Shown: in pieces, positions 12,723 through 28,830 of the stretch
How positions within the stretch are numbered: position 1 is the stretch's first letter
How the letters are laid out: each line of letters opens with the position of its first letter
Source of the DNA: an uncultured Candidatus Saccharibacteria bacterium
GTDB lineage: Bacteria > Patescibacteriota > Minisyncoccia > UBA6257 > UBA9933
Length of the DNA: 64,000 nucleotides
Reading direction: 5' to 3'
NCBI GenBank assembly: GCA_964642155.1
Contig: CAZXNT010000003.1
Coordinates: forward strand, 64,899 to 128,898
Made by a program: the position numbers and the translations under genes
Notes under the pieces: model-generated
The model's input: only the letters and a program-made list of their open reading frames with translations
Told to the model about the DNA's origin: nothing
The model's database searches: none

Positions 12723-13583
12723 CTACGGACTCCAATTTATAATCACATCGGTTACTGTCGGGGAATTCGTTCCGGAAGCGTCAGAATATAAAAATATTTT
12801 GTAACGGAAATATCTTTGATTGTTATGATACGCCAAATTTATTTGAGTCGAAATTCCCGTGTTCGCCGGAGCGTAATAAGTTGTTGCCGAACCGTCCGGA
12901 CCCTTGTAATCCCATGGTCCAGCAGCGCTGTTTGACGAAGCGATTTGAAATTTAACGCTTGTTCCGCTCAACTGCGTTCCTTGCCACATAATGGTATTTA
13001 TCGCTGAACCGCCAATTGCCCAAGTGTCAAAAACCGAAGAAACTAAACTGCCAGAAGTGGATGTTGAAACAGAACTTGTTTTAACTTTATAATCGGACGG
13101 TGAACAACCGCCAGCGCCGGAATTAACGCAATTAAAACTAAACCAGCCGACATTATCATTCCACGCCCAGCCGGAAAAATCGCCGTTTGACGGATTAACA
13201 AAAACGCCATAAGCCTGGCTTTGTGTTGTTGTACCGGAAAAACTGAGCCAACCAAAATTATCATTCCAAGCATAACCGCTCAAACTTCCGGTTCCGTCTT
13301 TTAAAACTTTAAAATCGCTCGTTCCGCAAACATTACCGCTCGGCGAAGTAGCGCAATCAAGTGCGATAAAGCCGATTGATGAAGAAGCGTAGCCAGTCAG
13401 TTGTGTTGAAGAGACATTGACATTATTCGTCGTATAAAAATCAACCCAACCGATTACATCATTCCAGGCATAGCGGTAGGTTGAATCAATATTGGTGGCG
13501 GCGGAAACAGTAGTAAGTAGAAAGTAGATAGTAGATAGTAAAACAACGAGGCACACCGCAAAAATAATTTTTATTTTAAACAT
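12723..13583 (-). CDS. secreted protein with three W-A-W-N-D-x-x-G-W-x-x-F repeats
   Basis: Signal peptide. Repeats YAWNDVIGWVDF / YAWNDNFGWLSF / WAWNDNVGWFSF. Paralogous repeat block in 15650..16822. Confidence 0.55.
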   Translation of the reverse strand: MFKIKIIFAVCLVVLLSTIYFLLTTVSAATNIDSTYRYAWNDVIGWVDFYTTNNVNVSSTQLTGYASSSIGFIALDCATSPSGNVCGTSDFKVLKDGTGSLSGYAWNDNFGWLSFSGTTTQSQAYGVFVNPSNGDFSGWAWNDNVGWFSFNCVNSGAGGCSPSDYKVKTSSVSTSTSGSLVSSVFDTWAIGGSAINTIMWQGTQLSGTSVKFQIASSNSAAGPWDYKGPDGSATTYYAPANTGISTQINLAYHNNQRYFRYKIFLYSDASGTNSPTVTDVIINWSP

Positions 13584-13696
13584 ATTTTAATTTATTTTAT
13601 CATAATCCAATTATCATTACAAATTACCTATGTTCAATTTCGTATAAATTTTTATATAAATTATCGCAGATATTAAATTTTATATCTTTAATCTTT

Positions 13697-13720
13697 CTTG
13701 CTATCCCATAGGATAGCAAG
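13697..13720. promoter_or_regulatory. palindrome CTTGCTATCC-cata-GGATAGCAAG (candidate operator)
   Basis: Perfect 10-bp arms. Family member of 8 related palindromes around the two TrpR-like genes. Confidence 0.5.
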
Positions 13721-13772
13721 AATAGTTGAGTTAAATTGAGATTACGGGGCCTGATCACGAAATCTTTAATTT

Positions 13773-13800
13773 CCCTTACAATCCTATGAAATAGCAAGGG
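13773..13800. promoter_or_regulatory. degenerate copy of the CTTGCTATCC palindrome
   Basis: CCCTTACAATCC-tat-GAAATAGCAAGGG; right arm intact, left arm degenerate. Confidence 0.3.
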
Positions 13801-13929
13801 TTTTGTATAAAAAATTAAAAAAAATACCCCGTTAGAAATAATACCTCTTTGTTCTACGGCGAGGTTACATTTTAGAATAATTCTGGCGGGGTCTAATGCC
13901 CCGCTGGAATTTCTAACGGGGTTTACTTT

Positions 13930-14454
13930 TCAATTTATTAATTTCTTTCTCCGCCTTGGCATTGTTGGGTCAAGGAATTTCCATCTCCCCTTTCCGGATG
14001 CGTTCGGCAATCTGTCAAATATCTCATCCATAATATTAATGATATCCGCCATTCCGTCCGCCATATCGCTAAATGAAAATTGAAGAAAATGTTTTGGTGT
14101 TTTATCTGATTTATTGTTATTTTTATTTTTTTTGGAAATTTCAAAATAACTCTTATATTCGCCGTTTCCAATACTTTTTTTAATTGAACTAATGGTGTTC
14201 GGAGACAGCCAAAGAATTTCGCTGATTTGGTGATAATTCATTCCTTTTTTAAATAAAGAAATGATCGCCAATCTCCTGATAATATTTCTTTTTTCTTGAT
14301 TGGTTAATAAATTATTTAAAAATAATTCTAATTTTTTATTGCTCGCGATTTTTGAAAACTCTTTCCAAAGATAGTTTTCCCATTCTTTCCGGGACGAAAA
14401 TTCGGAAAGATTTTTTATATTTTCCATAATTTTAAATTTTGATATTTTAAGCAA
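13930..14454 (-). CDS. TrpR/YerC-like helix-turn-helix regulator (paralog 1)
   Basis: SRKEWENYLWKEF... and HTH QISEILWLSPNTISSIKKS. Paralog of 28218..28745. Confidence 0.55.
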   Translation of the reverse strand: MLKISKFKIMENIKNLSEFSSRKEWENYLWKEFSKIASNKKLELFLNNLLTNQEKRNIIRRLAIISLFKKGMNYHQISEILWLSPNTISSIKKSIGNGEYKSYFEISKKNKNNNKSDKTPKHFLQFSFSDMADGMADIINIMDEIFDRLPNASGKGRWKFLDPTMPRRRKKLIN

Positions 14455-14496
14455 AATAGAATATTAAGATAAAACATTAATAAGATTTTAAAACAT

Positions 14497-14534
14497 CCTT
14501 GCTCTTGCTATCTTATAGGATAGCAAGAGCAAGG
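14497..14534. promoter_or_regulatory. 38-bp palindrome CCTTGCTCTTGCTATC-N-GATAGCAAGAGCAAGG
   Basis: 16-bp perfect arms, in promoter region of TrpR-like gene. Confidence 0.5.
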
Positions 14535-14614
14535 AAAAAAGCAAACAAAATAGACAAGGAATAGTAAGAAGAATGATAGAAGAGCAAGAAGAAAAAGAAT
14601 AAAGAGGATATATT

Positions 14615-14640
14615 CCTTGCTATCCTGTAGGATAGCAAGG
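14615..14640. promoter_or_regulatory. palindrome CCTTGCTATCCT-gt-AGGATAGCAAGG
   Basis: 12-bp perfect arms, upstream of TrpR-like gene. Confidence 0.5.
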
Positions 14641-14903
14641 AAAAGAATAGGTGGAATACTTAAACAGATTAATAGAAAAACGGAAATATAAAAAAATCAC
14701 TCTAAAATGGCTAAAAGAAATTGATTTGGGCAACGAAAAAATAAAAAAGTTAACTCTGGAATAAATTATTGACTTACGAAGTCAATAAGATTGGGGTAAT
14801 TATTTATTTTCTAACGCTTCAATTCTTGATTTTAATTCTTTGATCTCAGTGTCTTTTTCCGCTTTGAGTTCTTTAATTGTCAACCATTGTCCCTATTTAT
14901 TTT

Positions 14904-15629
14904 TTATTTTCCTAGTTTATAAACCCTTGAATAGAGTGTTGTTGTGCCGTCATGATAACATCTATAATTTTCTCCTTTTCTAACAACCGCCGTACATCCA
15001 GCTTGATTGACTGCCGGTAGAGCATTTTGTGAATATACAGATATTCCACCCGCCTCACACAGTATATAAGTCAATGTTCCGCCAACGCCATTACACATAA
15101 AAATTAAGTCTGTATCTGCTAGATAGTAAGTAGTATTAGTCATACCTGTTGTTGGCACTCTCAAAATTGAAACTGTCCCCACAACATCAAGAGTTGCATC
15201 CGGCGTTGGCGTCCCAATGCCGACGTAGCCATTGCTCCCGTCTATAACTAAATAATTTGCTCCCGTAAAATTACCAATTTCAAATTTTCCTGCTCCAATA
15301 GCATTCCCTGACCCAGACGACATTAAACTAAAAGTTCTCGCCCCAACTCCTCCTCCAGTAAGATTTAAAATTCCGCCGGCAGTTCCTGTATTAGTGATAC
15401 GCGCAAGAGTATTAAGAGAAAAAGGATTATTATTTGATGCCACGATATCTAAGGAAACTTGAGGTGTTGATGTCCCGATGCCGACGTTGCCGTTGTAATA
15501 ATATAAAGCGCCGCCGCCGGAAGGAGGGTTGGCGGTAGGATTGGTCCAAGCATTAACCAAAACAGCAATTAAAAGACCGACTATTATTGAAGTTAAAATT
15601 GGAAATAAAATTTTTTGTTTATTTTTCAT
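14904..15629 (-). CDS. secreted Gly-rich repeat protein (GxVGIGTxTP...LDVVG repeats)
   Basis: N-terminal signal anchor, two GNVGIGTSTPQVSLDIV-type repeats. First gene of pilus locus. Confidence 0.5.
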   Translation of the reverse strand: MKNKQKILFPILTSIIVGLLIAVLVNAWTNPTANPPSGGGALYYYNGNVGIGTSTPQVSLDIVASNNNPFSLNTLARITNTGTAGGILNLTGGGVGARTFSLMSSGSGNAIGAGKFEIGNFTGANYLVIDGSNGYVGIGTPTPDATLDVVGTVSILRVPTTGMTNTTYYLADTDLIFMCNGVGGTLTYILCEAGGISVYSQNALPAVNQAGCTAVVRKGENYRCYHDGTTTLYSRVYKLGK

Positions 15630-15649
15630 TTTTTTTATTATAACATATC

Positions 15650-16822
15650 CTACGGACGCCAGCTAGTTTTCACCTTATAATTAACCGTTCCGCAAGTGCT
15701 TGTGTTGGAACAATTGAACGAAACCCAACCCTTGATATCGTTCCACGCCCAGCCGGAAAATTCTCCCGTAGAAGTATTGATAACGACCTGATACGTTGGA
15801 TTTGACGGACAAACCCAATTACTGCCACTTAAAGTTGAACCGCCGGAAGCGTTTCCGCAAAAACTTGTCCAGCCGATTCCATCATTCCACGCCCAACCTG
15901 CCAAATTTCCGCTCGCGTCATTGGAAACTTTAAAATTACTCGTCCCGCAAATATTATTATTCGGCGTGGAATTACAATTCAAAGCGACAAAACCGACTGA
16001 TAAACTTGCGTATCCTTCAAGCCGGTCAGAATAAACTTTTACATTGCCTGTTGAAAATCCGAAATCAATCCAGCCAATTAAGTCATTCCATGCCCATTTG
16101 TCCGTTGAATCAATGGTGCCAGTGGCGTTACTGCCCCCCCCCGCAGCGCCGCTAATCGTTATTGCGCCCGTTGAACTTGAATAATTAATATTGGTTGAAC
16201 TGGCGAATTTATTGTTTATTAAAGTGTTATTGGTGCTGGTTGAAAAAAATTCTTGATTATTACCGCCGCTCCAATCGGTCTGAATAAAAACTTTATTCTG
16301 GTTCCGCGTCAGATATTGGATTTTATTCAGATTGCGTCCGCCTTCCCAATTTACATAAACCATTATTTTTTGAGTTGAAGGGTCATCCGCAATTCCGCTG
16401 TCGCCCACAGCCGCGCAGGAAGTAGTGGCGTTAGTTGTGATATTGCCGATGCCGCATAAATCACGACTTGCGTTTTCAATTAAAAAATAACGGGTAAAAT
16501 TTTTGCCTTCAATAATAGTAGTGGTAGCGCCGGAAACCAACGCAAAAGCCGTGCCCGAAGCAGTTAAATAAAATTGTGAGTCCACTCCTTTACTCGCCGG
16601 TGGAATATAAACTTTTTGCCAGTCGGAATAAGCGAGCGATTGAAGATTATCAATATATTCCGAAGCCAAAGACAAAGCGATTTGCGCTGTTTTGGTGTCA
16701 AAATTACTTCTTAACACAACAACGATCGTTGTGGCCGCCGCGCCGATTAAAATAGTGGCAATCGCCATGCCGATAATGACTTCTATTAAACTTTGTCCCT
16801 TATTAGTATTGAATCTGTCCAT
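15650..16822 (-). CDS. minor pilin (prepilin-type N-terminus) with C-terminal WAWND repeat domain
   Basis: KGQSLIEVIIGMAIATIL prepilin cleavage/methylation-type N-terminus. Repeats KWAWNDLIGWIDF / GWAWNDGIGWTSF / GWAWNDIKGWVSF. Confidence 0.6.
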   Translation of the reverse strand: MDRFNTNKGQSLIEVIIGMAIATILIGAAATTIVVVLRSNFDTKTAQIALSLASEYIDNLQSLAYSDWQKVYIPPASKGVDSQFYLTASGTAFALVSGATTTIIEGKNFTRYFLIENASRDLCGIGNITTNATTSCAAVGDSGIADDPSTQKIMVYVNWEGGRNLNKIQYLTRNQNKVFIQTDWSGGNNQEFFSTSTNNTLINNKFASSTNINYSSSTGAITISGAAGGGSNATGTIDSTDKWAWNDLIGWIDFGFSTGNVKVYSDRLEGYASLSVGFVALNCNSTPNNNICGTSNFKVSNDASGNLAGWAWNDGIGWTSFCGNASGGSTLSGSNWVCPSNPTYQVVINTSTGEFSGWAWNDIKGWVSFNCSNTSTCGTVNYKVKTSWRP

Positions 16823-17261
16823 TTGTGTTAACGATTATTGTTTTGGAAATTGACGCGTCTCTTTTAAGGGAAATTATAATAGTGGTTGACGCGTTCGGCA
16901 AACCGCTGACCGGAGCGAAAATAACGTCTTTGCTGTTTCCGGATGTTGGGTCGGAAAATTGAATAGTCGGCCTAAACGAATTTTTAGAGATTATCGTTCC
17001 AGTGGCATAAGTCGTTCCGGAAAATAAATCGTAAAATCCGCCGCTGGAAACTGAATTTTCAAAATGAATGCCATAATGGCTGCTTGATTCCTGCGAGATT
17101 GACCTATCCTGCGCGTTTCTTAAAATTATCGTAATTTCCCGCGCCGTTAAATCAAGGTCTTGCGTTCCGCGATAACCGAAAAGATTTAAAAAAGAAACCG
17201 TGGATACAACTGCAATAATGCCGATAGTTATTAATAATTCTATAAGTGTAAAGGCTCTCAT
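16803..17261 (-). CDS. type IV pilus pseudopilin/minor pilin
   Basis: MRAFTLIELLITIGIIAVV prepilin N-terminal domain. Confidence 0.7.
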   Translation of the reverse strand: MRAFTLIELLITIGIIAVVSTVSFLNLFGYRGTQDLDLTAREITIILRNAQDRSISQESSSHYGIHFENSVSSGGFYDLFSGTTYATGTIISKNSFRPTIQFSDPTSGNSKDVIFAPVSGLPNASTTIIISLKRDASISKTIIVNTNGQIQY

Positions 17262-17262
17262 T

Positions 17263-18474
17263 TTAGAATTGTCCTACTAACTGATATATCGGCACGATGA
17301 CCGCCAAAGCGATGGTGCCGATGATAAGTCCGATAACCAAAAGCAAAATCGGCTCCAAGAATGAAACCATTGATTTTATCGCGGTCTCTATCTCCGAAGT
17401 GTAAAAATCAGCCAAGGTCGTTAAAATGCTTTCCATATGGCCGGCCTTTTCAGAAATTGACATCAGATTAACCACCACTCTCGGGAAAGTCGGCTCTTTG
17501 CGAAAAGCTTCGCCGATGGTCAAACCTTTGGAAATTCCTTCCCGCGCTATTCTGCGTAAGCTTGTTTTTAATTCTTCATTTCCGACGGCATCAGCGGTGA
17601 TTTCCAGAGAATCAAGGATCGGCAATCCCGAAGAAAGTAATGCCGAAAATGTTGAAGCAAACCGCTGTAAGGCTATTTTTTTAAGAACTCCTCCGACAAT
17701 CGGCGTTTTTGCGATAAATCTTGAAAAAAGTTTTATTCCGATAATAGACTTTGTTATAAAAAACCAAGCGCCAACTAAAAGAATAATTATAAAAACCAAA
17801 ATAAACAAAAAATATTTTCCCATAAAAAGGCCGATTGCAAAAACGATTTTTGAAAATAACGGCGGCTCAAAACCTCCGGACGTAAAAATGTTGGCGATTT
17901 TTGGAAGCGCGAAACTCACCAAGAGGAAAAGAATCGCGGCCGAAGCGGTTAAAAGAATAATTGGATAAGTAATCGCCGCTTTAATCTGCCGTCTTAAATC
18001 CTGCTCTTTTTGCAAGGCAATGCTTAATTGATTAAAAACAAGTTCCAAATTTCCGGAAGTTTCTCCGGCTTTAATCATATTTATAAAAACCGAGGAGAAA
18101 AATCTCGGATACCTGACAAACACGGAATGAAAGGGCTGTCCCTTTTCCAGTGAAGTCCTGATTTCCATCAATAAAGCTTTAAGCGCCGGCTTTTCAAAAT
18201 CAGCGATTAAAATATCAATCGCCCTTAAAAGGTCAGTGCCGACTCTTAGCATTAAAGCCAGATACTTAGTGAGAAAAACCTTGTCTTCAACGTCAATTGA
18301 CTGGCTAAAAATTTTAAACCGGCCGGTTTTTGAAAGTTCTTTCGGCGCTTTTAATGAAATCGGCCTTAATCCCTGGCTGGCGAGAAACCCCAAAACTTCA
18401 GCCACACTTTCAGCTTCATGGTCGCCTTCAATTATTTTCCCATTGGATTGTGATGCAATATAATGAAACCTCAT
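17263..18474 (-). CDS. pilC: type IV pilus assembly platform protein PilC (GspF family)
   Basis: Two GspF repeats, 403 aa, three TM segments. Confidence 0.85.
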   Translation of the reverse strand: MRFHYIASQSNGKIIEGDHEAESVAEVLGFLASQGLRPISLKAPKELSKTGRFKIFSQSIDVEDKVFLTKYLALMLRVGTDLLRAIDILIADFEKPALKALLMEIRTSLEKGQPFHSVFVRYPRFFSSVFINMIKAGETSGNLELVFNQLSIALQKEQDLRRQIKAAITYPIILLTASAAILFLLVSFALPKIANIFTSGGFEPPLFSKIVFAIGLFMGKYFLFILVFIIILLVGAWFFITKSIIGIKLFSRFIAKTPIVGGVLKKIALQRFASTFSALLSSGLPILDSLEITADAVGNEELKTSLRRIAREGISKGLTIGEAFRKEPTFPRVVVNLMSISEKAGHMESILTTLADFYTSEIETAIKSMVSFLEPILLLVIGLIIGTIALAVIVPIYQLVGQF

Positions 18475-27780: not shown

Positions 27781-27806
27781 TTCTGCTATCCCCAGGGATA
27801 GCAGAA
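27781..27806. promoter_or_regulatory. palindrome TTCTGCTATCCC-ca-GGGATAGCAGAA
   Basis: 12-bp perfect arms. Confidence 0.5.
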
Positions 27807-27903: not shown

Positions 27904-27929
27904 TCCTGCTCTCCCTGGGGAGAGCAGGA
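27904..27929. promoter_or_regulatory. palindrome TCCTGCTCTCC-ctgg-GGAGAGCAGGA
   Basis: 11-bp perfect arms. Confidence 0.5.
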
Positions 27930-28083
27930 TAAAAAAGACATAAGAAAAAATAAGAACATAAAAATATAAGGGGAAAATAAAAAAAAGAAATGAAAGGGGG
28001 GAATAAAATAAAGGAAATAAAATAAAGAATAAAATAAAAAAGATAAAAATAAAAAATGAAGAAAGTGAAAAATAAAAATAAAT

Positions 28084-28109
28084 TTCCTGCTCTCCCCATG
28101 GAGAGCAGA
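28084..28109. promoter_or_regulatory. palindrome TCCTGCTCTCC-ccat-GGAGAGCAGaA
   Basis: One mismatch. Confidence 0.45.
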
Positions 28110-28217
28110 ATAGAATATAATATAAAGAAAACACAAAAGGTCGACCTTAATAATTAATGATAAAAAATAATAAAAATTAAAATTTAATTCATTTATAATT
28201 TATAATGATATAATTTT

Positions 28218-28745
28218 ATGATTAATTTATTTATGAAACATCTTTCTTCTGAAAATTCCATAAAACAACTCCCAGAATTTAAATCAAGAAAAGAATGGCA
28301 AGAATACATTTGGCAAGAATTTATAAAAAAACTTTACAAAGCAAAATCGGCAAAACAAACGCAAGAATATCTGGAAAGTTTTTTAAGCGCGAGAGAGCGA
28401 GATTTAATTATTAAACGAATAATTGCCACTGCCTTAATCAGCCAAGGTAAAAAATACAGAGAAATAGGAGAAATTTTATGGCTATCCCATAACACAATTA
28501 GCGCCATTAAAAAGGGTCTTTTAAAAAAGACTATTTATCACGGATATAAATATTATCGCGTTCAAAAATTAAAAAACGGCCCTGATAATAAAAATTCACT
28601 TAAAATAACGATTGATAATTTAGGAGAGGCGACTTTGGATTTTGTAAATTGGCTTTCTCGATTACCGATTTCACCGGCAGCGATTAAATATGGAAAACTC
28701 TTTAATTCATATGAGCAAGATAAGGCAAAATATAGTAAAAAATAA
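28218..28745 (+). CDS. TrpR/YerC-like HTH regulator (paralog 2)
   Basis: SRKEWQEYIWQEF... and HTH EIGEILWLSHNTISAIKKG. Paralog of 13930..14454. Confidence 0.55.
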   Translation: MINLFMKHLSSENSIKQLPEFKSRKEWQEYIWQEFIKKLYKAKSAKQTQEYLESFLSARERDLIIKRIIATALISQGKKYREIGEILWLSHNTISAIKKGLLKKTIYHGYKYYRVQKLKNGPDNKNSLKITIDNLGEATLDFVNWLSRLPISPAAIKYGKLFNSYEQDKAKYSKK

Positions 28746-28798: not shown

Positions 28799-28830
28799 TA
28801 TCCTTGCTCTCCCTGGGGAGAGCAAGGATT
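28799..28830. promoter_or_regulatory. palindrome ATCCTTGCTCTCC-ctgg-GGAGAGCAAGGAT (possibly also terminator)
   Basis: 14-bp perfect arms followed by TTTTT. Confidence 0.5.

Follow-up and report, generated by a model that had tools for sequence, protein, structure and literature searches.

Results

Long palindromes flank two TrpR-like genes

The window, which is the whole stretch of DNA that was analysed (64 kb of contig CAZXNT010000003.1, from an uncultured Candidatus Saccharibacteria bacterium), carries two genes for TrpR-like helix-turn-helix (HTH) proteins, here named paralog 1 (W1) and paralog 2 (W2), each accompanied by long palindromes upstream and downstream. Judging from sequence, these palindromes are very probably operators of the proteins encoded beside them, and the W1 product is likely to be a dimeric repressor of its own gene. 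We computed the fold family of the protein, the conservation and locality of the sites, the covariation between recognition helix and operator, and the position of the promoter-proximal site with respect to -10-like boxes. Homologous loci from genome and metagenome collections are designated by L-numbers. At W1 the palindromes are of the type CTTGCTATCC-N4-GGATAGCAAG, and the locus is laid out as follows (nt, nucleotides; bp, base pairs; aa, amino acids):

13695-13722: perfect downstream palindrome; 13/14 pairs, with a perfect core CTTGCTATCC-CATA-GGATAGCAAG at 13697-13720
13773-13800: decayed downstream palindrome; ~8/12 pairs; positional ortholog of the predicted downstream operator in L026, L028 and L005
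13930..14427, minus strand: TrpR-like regulator gene, paralog 1; 165 aa from the ATG at 14427, extendable to a TTG at 14454
14485..14490, minus strand: -10-like box TAAAAT of a putative promoter; 5 nt past O1 on the gene strand
14496-14535: O1, predicted promoter-proximal operator; 40-bp palindrome, 19/20 pairs, no loop; 24-bp core at 14504-14527
14536-14610, plus strand: purine-rich spacer between O1 and O2, read from the sequence; pyrimidine-rich on the gene strand
14611-14644: O2, predicted distal upstream operator; core at 14616-14639; 14-nt perfect arms at 14613-14626 and 14629-14642

A preliminary description of the window had claimed four palindromes at W1, one perfect and one degenerate copy being downstream of the gene and an A/G-rich spacer lying between the two upstream ones. 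All four are present at slightly corrected coordinates, the downstream pair is indeed composed of a perfect (13695-13722) and a degenerate (13773-13800) copy, and the spacer 14536-14610 is purine-rich on the plus strand. The gene had been given as the open reading frame (ORF) 13930..14454 starting with TTG. This ORF exists, and its likelier start is the ATG at 14427: the resulting 165-aa product is on record in public assemblies and agrees with the homologs at the N-terminus, and an exact look-up of the 174-aa product starting at the TTG gave no match. More specifically, the outer arms of O1 repeat the CTTGCT half-site segment, and on the gene strand O1 is followed by TGTTT-TAAAAT (14490..14485). 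On the other side of the gene, the perfect copy lies 52 nt beyond the decayed one, and gene 12723..13583 starts 114 nt downstream of this perfect copy.

In the alignment with orthologs (80-89% protein identity), the palindromes stand out as invariant blocks within diverged intergenic DNA. O1 is kept in L026, L028 and L005 despite diverged flanks, O2 is also kept, and a T(T/C)AAAAT block is conserved where W1 has its -10-like box. The palindrome 13773-13800 is considered a decayed copy because its counterpart in the alignment is the downstream palindrome that these orthologs conserve.

The motif is strictly local. Scanning the 64 kb for TGCTATCC-N4-GGATAGCA with up to 3 mismatches gave 7 matches against 0.11 expected, a number reached by none of 100 shuffles, and every match adjoins one of the two TrpR-like genes. 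A palindrome survey of the whole window showed the same restriction, and the remaining hairpins have sequences unrelated to the family palindromes. An even spread over the genome, as for repetitive extragenic palindromic (REP) sequences or miniature inverted-repeat transposable elements (MITEs), had been named beforehand as the finding that would speak against a link with this gene; the strictly local distribution, both in the window and in the homologous loci, is the opposite of this. With Rfam at gathering thresholds, only four tRNAs were found in the window, and nothing matched at the palindromes or at the 97-nt element described below.

The expectation of a second paralog at 28 kb with its own variant of the palindrome was borne out, and four palindromes accompany it:

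27781-27806: distal upstream palindrome of W2; core TCTGCTATCC of the paralog 1 type (GCTATCC), with 0 mismatches to the paralog 1 motif
27904-27929: second upstream palindrome of W2; CCTGCTCTCC type, GCTCTCC core
27930-28084, plus strand: extremely purine-rich spacer between two W2 palindromes, containing the top purine 60-nt windows of the 64 kb
28085-28110: proximal upstream palindrome of W2; CCTGCTCTCC type, GCTCTCC core, with TATAAT 6 nt past the core
28218..28745, plus strand: TrpR-like regulator gene, paralog 2; 175 aa, true start maybe the ATG at 28233; exact product on record
28800-28829: downstream palindrome of W2; GCTCTCC core, 54 nt past the stop codon and followed by TTTTT

The two paralogs are 37% identical, and the hidden Markov model (HMM) of the family, which recovers paralog 2 with E=7e-46, detected no third copy in the window. 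The paralog 1 core at 27781-27806 hints at cross-regulation between the paralogs. Between 27942 and 28043, 60-nt windows consist of 88-90% purine, compared with a mean of 48%, and are the most purine-rich of the 64 kb. Homopurine/homopyrimidine spacers between or beside palindromes were also seen in L011, L072, L081 and L050/L051; relative to the gene, the purine strand is opposite in the two window paralogs.

Assignment of the W1 product to the TrpR superfamily

Paralog 1 matches the Pfam family Trp_repressor (PF01371) with 35.0 bits, above the cut-off of 27, as do 66/68 aligned family members. In a profile search of PDB sequences the best natural matches were 3kor, 3frw and 3g1c (E=1e-8 to 8e-6), which are YerC/HisR-type TrpR-like proteins, and Escherichia coli TrpR appeared with an E of about 0.05 in the same search. 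Both paralogs fall short of the TrpR equivalog TIGR01321 (cut-off 67.25; paralog 1, 23.9 bits; paralog 2, 30.6 bits), and likewise of the YerC/YecD model TIGR02531 (23.6 bits for paralog 1, against 42.2; paralog 2 had no match). Since PF01371 is matched and the two more specific models are missed, we place the protein among the TrpR-superfamily HTH proteins, where it is neither TrpR nor HisR. The initial label "TrpR/YerC-like" is therefore correct as to the superfamily, on the grounds of PF01371 and the PDB matches, and applies to YerC at the superfamily level only.

The AlphaFold2 (AF2) model of paralog 1 has a mean predicted local distance difference test score (pLDDT) of 71, with the last 60 residues modelled poorly, while residues 13-102 form six helices at a pLDDT of about 85-90. 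The protein is made of a TrpR-like core of ~100 aa and of a poorly ordered, family-specific C-terminal extension, which ends in a conserved P..GKGRWKFL; R52 is invariant across the family. Foldseek against the PDB returned TrpR or TrpR-like structures for all the top 27 matches, at a probability of at most 0.97, but with E of at least 0.19 and a high root-mean-square deviation. No catalytic domain was found in paralog 1, which consists of the HTH core and the disordered tail: the model of the insertion sequence (IS) family IS630 scored 12 bits against a cut-off of 100, and the match to HTH_23 was weak and sub-threshold.

A family of putative regulators bracketed by cognate palindromes

An exhaustive profile search at E<=1e-10 collected representatives of 349 clusters (50% identity). 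Genome and metagenome collections were scanned as well and gave 100 loci, reduced to 62 after removal of identical proteins, including the two window genes. Of the 20 loci from the genome collection, nearly all carry a Patescibacteria label (Wolfebacteria, Harrisonbacteria, Paceibacterota, Parcubacteria and metagenome-assembled genomes, MAGs, called "Saccharibacteria"), and one MAG is labelled Spirochaetia. The proteins are about 135-175 aa long and are annotated at source only as hypothetical, "YerC" or "Trp family regulator". We found no description of this regulator family of the candidate phyla radiation (CPR) in the literature, and we regard it as a real and apparently undescribed one.

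At least two palindromes with the same core were found in 50/62 distinct homologs, and on both sides of the gene in 47/62; L012, L058 and L063 have further single sites that were missed by the script. Counting palindromes of at least 9 pairs with a GC of at least 0.3, the density is 3.65/kb in the 400-nt flanks of the genes versus 0.41/kb elsewhere in the loci, a 9-fold difference. All sites share one 24-bp register, in which nnn-R-C-T and six lineage-specific bases are followed by their mirror image. The cores differ among lineages (CTATCC, CTATCA, CTTCCC, CTTTCC, CTACTAC, CTATGCC, CTTTGAC and others) and are identical at both ends of a given gene. For loci with at least two family sites, we also searched with a locus-specific 18-nt consensus, allowing up to 3 mismatches: 124/159 sites lie within 200 nt of the ORF, and the 170 kb surveyed at more than 600 nt from it contain only 3.

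Most loci have 2-3 sites, and the nearest upstream and downstream sites are separated, centre to centre, by a median of 543 bp (10-90% range 496-654 bp). Palindromy often extends over 30-46 bp, and the extensions differ among the sites of one locus, stay complementary and are longer downstream. Some of the long palindromes are composites of repeated half-sites, as in W1 (14496-14535), L041, L057 and L092. A few loci are richer in sites, and arrays of 5-9 copies spaced by ~50 nt are seen in a few genomes: L085 (2761-3823) has 3 upstream and 6 downstream cognate palindromes with a period of ~50 nt and an iteron- or centromere-like look, each copy being followed by a repeated GGGTTAGAAGAGG..GGATTTT unit, and L081, L078, L072 and L029 have 4-6 cognate sites each. 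Many metagenomic contigs break within ~1 kb of the TrpR-like gene (for example, L005, L007, L010, L014, L015, L018, L020 and L023), where long perfect palindromes or paralogous repeats may break the assemblies.

The core of the palindromes covaries with the recognition helix

Covariation between protein and site was evaluated on 43 distinct helix/site combinations, with p obtained by permutation. The residue X of the motif W-x-S-P-X-T-I/V-S, which is the first residue of the recognition helix, covaries with positions 7, 8 and 9 of the half-site (0.71, 0.60 and 0.79 bits, respectively; p<=0.01 each, by statistics that ignore kinship), which are the bases just inside the invariant C-T, and the other helix positions show little. 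The combinations observed (residue/bases) are N/ATC, G/TCC, K or A/TTC, C/ACT and Q/ATG.

The symmetry of the sites points in the same direction. Among stem mismatches, G.U and A.C are found without strand bias (14:12 upstream and 12:14 downstream), and the central 4 nt are usually palindromic too. Both observations are easier to reconcile with duplex DNA being read by a two-fold symmetric dimer than with a hairpin in sense-strand RNA.

The proximal site abuts a -10-like box

Next to the upstream sites, we looked for -10-like hexamers (at least 5/6 matches, starting 0-14 nt past the core), using the antisense flank as an internal control because the sites are symmetric. Such a box is found past 26/67 upstream sites on the sense strand versus 11/67 on the antisense strand. 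The peak is at +4, where seven loci have TATAAT, five of them in the form TGnTATAAT. With the box at +4, the 24-bp site covers about -40 to -17, that is, the place of the -35 element and the spacer, which is the classical position for promoter occlusion.

Downstream sites lie at a median of 15 nt past the stop codon. They may be auxiliary operators for looping, which is our preferred interpretation, roadblocks or hairpins at the end of the transcription unit, or operators of the next gene. As to the last option, W1 and L028 share a conserved block AGATATAAAATTTAATATC past the palindrome, upstream of the same secreted WAWND-repeat protein, and in L098 the downstream site abuts GGGTATAAT. In L006, L039 and L040 the space from the stop codon to rsmA is taken up by the downstream palindrome, which lies 8 nt before the ATG and overlaps a Shine-Dalgarno (SD)-like AGGAAG.

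A model of autorepression

The palindromes had been read in the preliminary description as operators of the regulator they surround. Conservation among orthologs, recurrence in 50/62 homologs, covariation with the recognition helix and abutment on the -10-like box make this very probable. Taken as a whole, we consider it likely that W1 encodes a dimeric TrpR-fold autorepressor with cognate flanking operators that occludes its own promoter. The protein would be a member of a Patescibacteria-specific subfamily of TrpR-fold HTH proteins, and would bind as a dimer to 24-bp two-fold sites, nnn-R-C-T-x-x-x-nnn facing nnn-x-x-x-A-G-Y-nnn, with CTTGCTATCCTA as the half-site at this locus. O1 (14496-14535), in the place of the -35 element and spacer and upstream of the -10-like box, would block RNA polymerase when occupied, and the gene would therefore repress itself. 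The additional sites (14611-14644, the decayed 13773-13800, and 13695-13722) would raise local occupancy, and probably cooperate with O1 through a loop of ~0.5-0.8 kb or serve as a roadblock. In the clade of the window the downstream site probably sets the expression of 12723..13583 too. Paralog 2 would be a second switch of like design with shifted specificity (GCTCTCC). In this scheme we infer DNA binding itself, as well as repression over activation; looping and any ligand would be equally putative.

Several observations weigh against this model. The covariation is uncorrected for phylogeny, L038 has the W1 helix together with a ACTACCAC core, and the difference between the W1 and W2 cores has no explanation in the helix residues. 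Palindromy often exceeds what an HTH dimer needs, reaching 22-23 pairs, which goes beyond a simple operator model. On the side of the promoter, a generic sigma-70 scan of the region stays at shuffle level because the DNA is AT-rich, and the comparison of sense and antisense strands was used in its stead. On the downstream side, -10-like boxes are not enriched past the sites (14/71 sense versus 18/71 antisense), T-runs are rare (6/50 nearest downstream sites), and the spacings showed no helical phasing (Rayleigh test, periods of 10.0-11.0 bp, nothing surviving multiple testing). Finally, the Foldseek E-values are non-significant (0.19 or worse), which may be explained by the modelling of a monomer, TrpR being an intertwined dimer.

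Neighbouring genes

The gene on the downstream side of W1 is a candidate second target:

12723..13583, minus strand: secreted WAWND-repeat protein, 286 aa; same downstream neighbour in L028 (91% identity)

A related C-terminal domain is present in the neighbour in L031, and neither the product of 12723..13583 nor its WAWND domain has a match in Pfam. WAWND-x2-GW repeats are common to this 286-aa protein and to the C-terminal half of the 390-aa N_methyl pseudopilin (15650-16822); in tblastn, the L028 neighbour matches both 12723-13583 (91%) and 15650-16822 (61%). Upstream of W1, a short ORF remnant at 14800-14883 (minus strand), LTIKELKAEKDTEIKELKSRIEALENK*, is similar to the C-terminal coiled coil of the upstream neighbour in L028, which is longer. 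This points to the 241-aa gene 14904..15629 being a shortened form of a larger surface or tail-fibre-like protein.

No gene partner is universal across the neighbours of the family. The commonest are rsmA/ksgA-like genes downstream (12 loci) and comM/YifB-like genes upstream (8 loci), all co-directional, and the neighbours are mostly housekeeping genes (rsmA, comM, thrS, dnaE, infA), pilus genes being found in the window's own clade only. The order comM/YifB-like, TrpR-like, rsmA/ksgA-like is shared by L006, L012, L034, L039, L040, L049, L068 and L094, and it persists at 45-89% protein identity while the core of the palindrome changes in place. This indicates vertical inheritance with co-evolving sites, and argues against a mobile cassette. 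The family is absent from the viral contigs of IMG/VR; in PHROGs, paralog 1 had no match, and paralog 2 had two weak ones (E 0.001-0.002, including phrog_6223, "transcriptional repressor").

A short insertion after the stop codon

Between the W1 gene and its old downstream site lies an element that is no part of the regulatory module:

13826-13922: insertion of 97 nt bounded by inverted repeats of 14 nt (ACCCCGTTAGAAAT); it separates the stop codon from the former downstream operator (putative)

The insertion is missing from the orthologous loci L026, L028 and L005, and it folds at -42.7 kcal/mol (z=-5.8). Its termini recur ~110 nt apart, with a different interior, in L089, L096, L097 and L101, and it resembles a MITE that is shared by CPR genomes. 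Two independent Logan contigs stop inside it, at 13903. Independent Logan assemblies are otherwise 100% collinear with the window, without any inversion or alternative junction, and their sole shared break, at 13903, is not at a palindrome.

Alternative explanations

The same genes and sites could be read with bracketing itself as the function. In this case, the modules found throughout Patescibacteria would be protein-controlled boundaries (roadblocks or terminator-insulators between co-directional housekeeping genes) or chromosome-organising, centromere-like landmarks. The long palindromes, the purine-rich spacers and the ~50-nt arrays leave room for a boundary/insulator or centromere-like role, and we regard it as unlikely. 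If true, it would mean several orthogonal protein/site pairs per genome, a new use of the TrpR fold and a natural recognition-code series. Mechanistically, ordinary autorepression is the most likely reading.

We give little credence to the idea that the palindromes are RNA elements delimiting the transcript (terminators, stabilising 5' or 3' hairpins, or hairpins that sequester the SD sequence) and have no relation to the encoded protein. It is true that the stems run past the 24-bp core in a site-specific yet complementary way, up to 22-23 pairs and more so downstream, that the scan labelled 14535-14496 and three of the four W2 sites as terminator-like, the fourth (28800-28829) having TTTTT after it, and that the palindromes of L006, L039 and L040 sit over the SD-like AGGAAG 8 nt before rsmA. 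However, cores of RNA hairpins would have no need to co-vary with a recognition helix, nor would a hairpin loop need a palindromic centre; the absence of a G.U strand bias and the scarcity of T-runs after the nearest downstream sites also speak against RNA, and the family core occurs only beside this gene family, the other hairpins of the window being unrelated in sequence.

That the regulator mainly serves to control the type IV pilus operon beside it (14904..18474 and beyond) is hardly probable. The preliminary description had proposed that the regulator controls the adjacent secreted and pilus genes, and indeed W1 adjoins PilC-like (T2SSF), pseudopilin (N_methyl) and PilB-like genes, and paralog 2 lies among T4SS_pilin-like genes. 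Yet the sites lie downstream of the co-directional operon and not at its 5' end, where its promoter would be, which leaves the pilus part of the proposal unsupported; the window holds no extra copy of the motif at up to 3 mismatches, and family-wide the neighbours are mostly housekeeping genes and not pilus genes. Control of the secreted protein gene 12723..13583 is plausible, given the palindrome 114 nt upstream and the AGATATAAAATTTAATATC block conserved in L028.

It appears quite improbable that the sites form a centromere-like or nucleoid-organising cluster, of the sopC/SopB or parS/ParB type, at which the protein nucleates a higher-order complex at its own gene. The arrays in L085, L081, L078, L072 and L029 would suit it, as would the clustering of sites at the gene of their binding protein, which is also seen in par loci, and the lack of a conserved regulon or neighbour. 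Against it, the conserved neighbours include no NTPase partner of the ParA, ParM or TubZ type, arrays are confined to few loci whereas most have 2-3 sites only, genomes have at least two paralogous systems with different specificities, the proximal site goes together with a -10 box, and the family belongs to small-molecule-responsive repressors (PMC9413887). An origin of replication with DnaA boxes, suggested by the TATCC core and the TrpR-like domain IV of DnaA, was set aside, with no dnaA or dnaN near and with the sites tracking the paralogs.

Most improbable is a mobile or recombining cassette, in which the palindromes would be terminal inverted repeats or sites of recombination, bound at the ends by the HTH protein: identical palindromes do bracket the gene, each pair counting as direct and inverted repeats at once, the neighbours of L026 (infA-rpsM-rpsK), an ortholog with 89% identity, are not those of W1, contigs often stop close to the gene and sub-threshold HTH_23 and IS630-type matches exist, but there is no catalytic domain, at 37% identity the paralogs are no recent copies, site number and distance vary in a way that defined element ends do not, one clade keeps its comM-like to rsmA-like order with cores diverging in place, independent assemblies of the locus reveal no inversion or alternative junction, and the family is absent from IMG/VR, with only the two weak paralog 2 matches (E about 1e-3) in PHROGs.

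Discussion

CPR bacteria have tiny genomes with very few recognisable regulators, almost none of which has assigned binding sites. Here, sequence analysis supplies every family member with an operator and a promoter position, both predicted, and with a candidate for the residue that sets specificity. Such regulator-site pairs could be of use in organisms that are hard to culture, and the natural, co-varying series of TrpR-fold helices and operators could serve recognition-code work or orthogonal synthetic repressors. For annotation, proteins of this family should be called neither TrpR nor HisR/YerC. Something new may lie in the consistent site past the stop codon, in the excess length of the palindromes and in the purine-rich spacers.

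Several known systems resemble the one described here. In REP sequences with their associated tyrosine transposases (RAYT), in MITEs and in IS200-like elements, a small gene is likewise flanked by hairpin-forming palindromes; our palindromes differ in that they are not dispersed, their gene has no HUH or transposase domain, and the copies are not recent. In the CI-type switches (lambda OL/OR, 186 FL/FR, TP901-1 OR/OL/OD) and in lac O1-O2, operators a few hundred bp apart act through looping. As in these systems, the putative repressor gene here stands amid copies of its predicted operator, and the median spacing of 543 bp would suit a loop; the differences are a TrpR-like fold and not a lambda-cI/XRE one, a setting that is no prophage, and oligomerisation beyond a dimer, which would be putative here.

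The nearest characterised proteins are HisR (YerC) and TrpR, short dimers that depend on a corepressor and recognise palindromes of 20 bp (cacTTTAn6TAAAgtg for HisR, TGTAcTnGTnnACnAgTACA for TrpR), and autoregulation of the HisR gene was predicted in about half of the genomes studied (PMC9413887). In broad terms, the present family would act in a similar way. HisR, the histidine repressor of Firmicutes (YerC/YecD), is the closest in terms of top sequence and structure matches, and has PF01371 in common with the present family, for which palindromic operators and autoregulation are likewise predicted. It has fewer than 100 aa, whereas the two proteins of the window have 165-175 aa with an extra C-terminal region; its site is the 20-bp palindrome cited above, compared with 24 bp and an RCTATC-type half-site here; and its motif lies upstream of his and histidine-transport genes, whereas no his genes are near our loci, whose neighbours are pilus, secreted-protein and housekeeping genes. 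Bracketing of the gene by sites also distinguishes the present family from HisR.

TrpR autoregulates and binds its operators in tandem. The E. coli protein is of the same fold family, and in our comparison its LLTPDER..R54 aligns with LLTNQEK..R52; the position that we take to be the corepressor-binding Arg84 of TrpR is not conserved in the alignment. The (A/G)CTA of the half-site is reminiscent of ACTAG in the trp operator TGTAcTnGTnnACnAgTACA (PMC9413887). The spacing of the half-sites is, however, ~4 bp wider here, and no trp/aro regulon is evident. From both TrpR and HisR the family is set apart by its apparent restriction to Patescibacteria, by the absence of a link with amino-acid genes, and by at least two orthogonal paralogs per genome.

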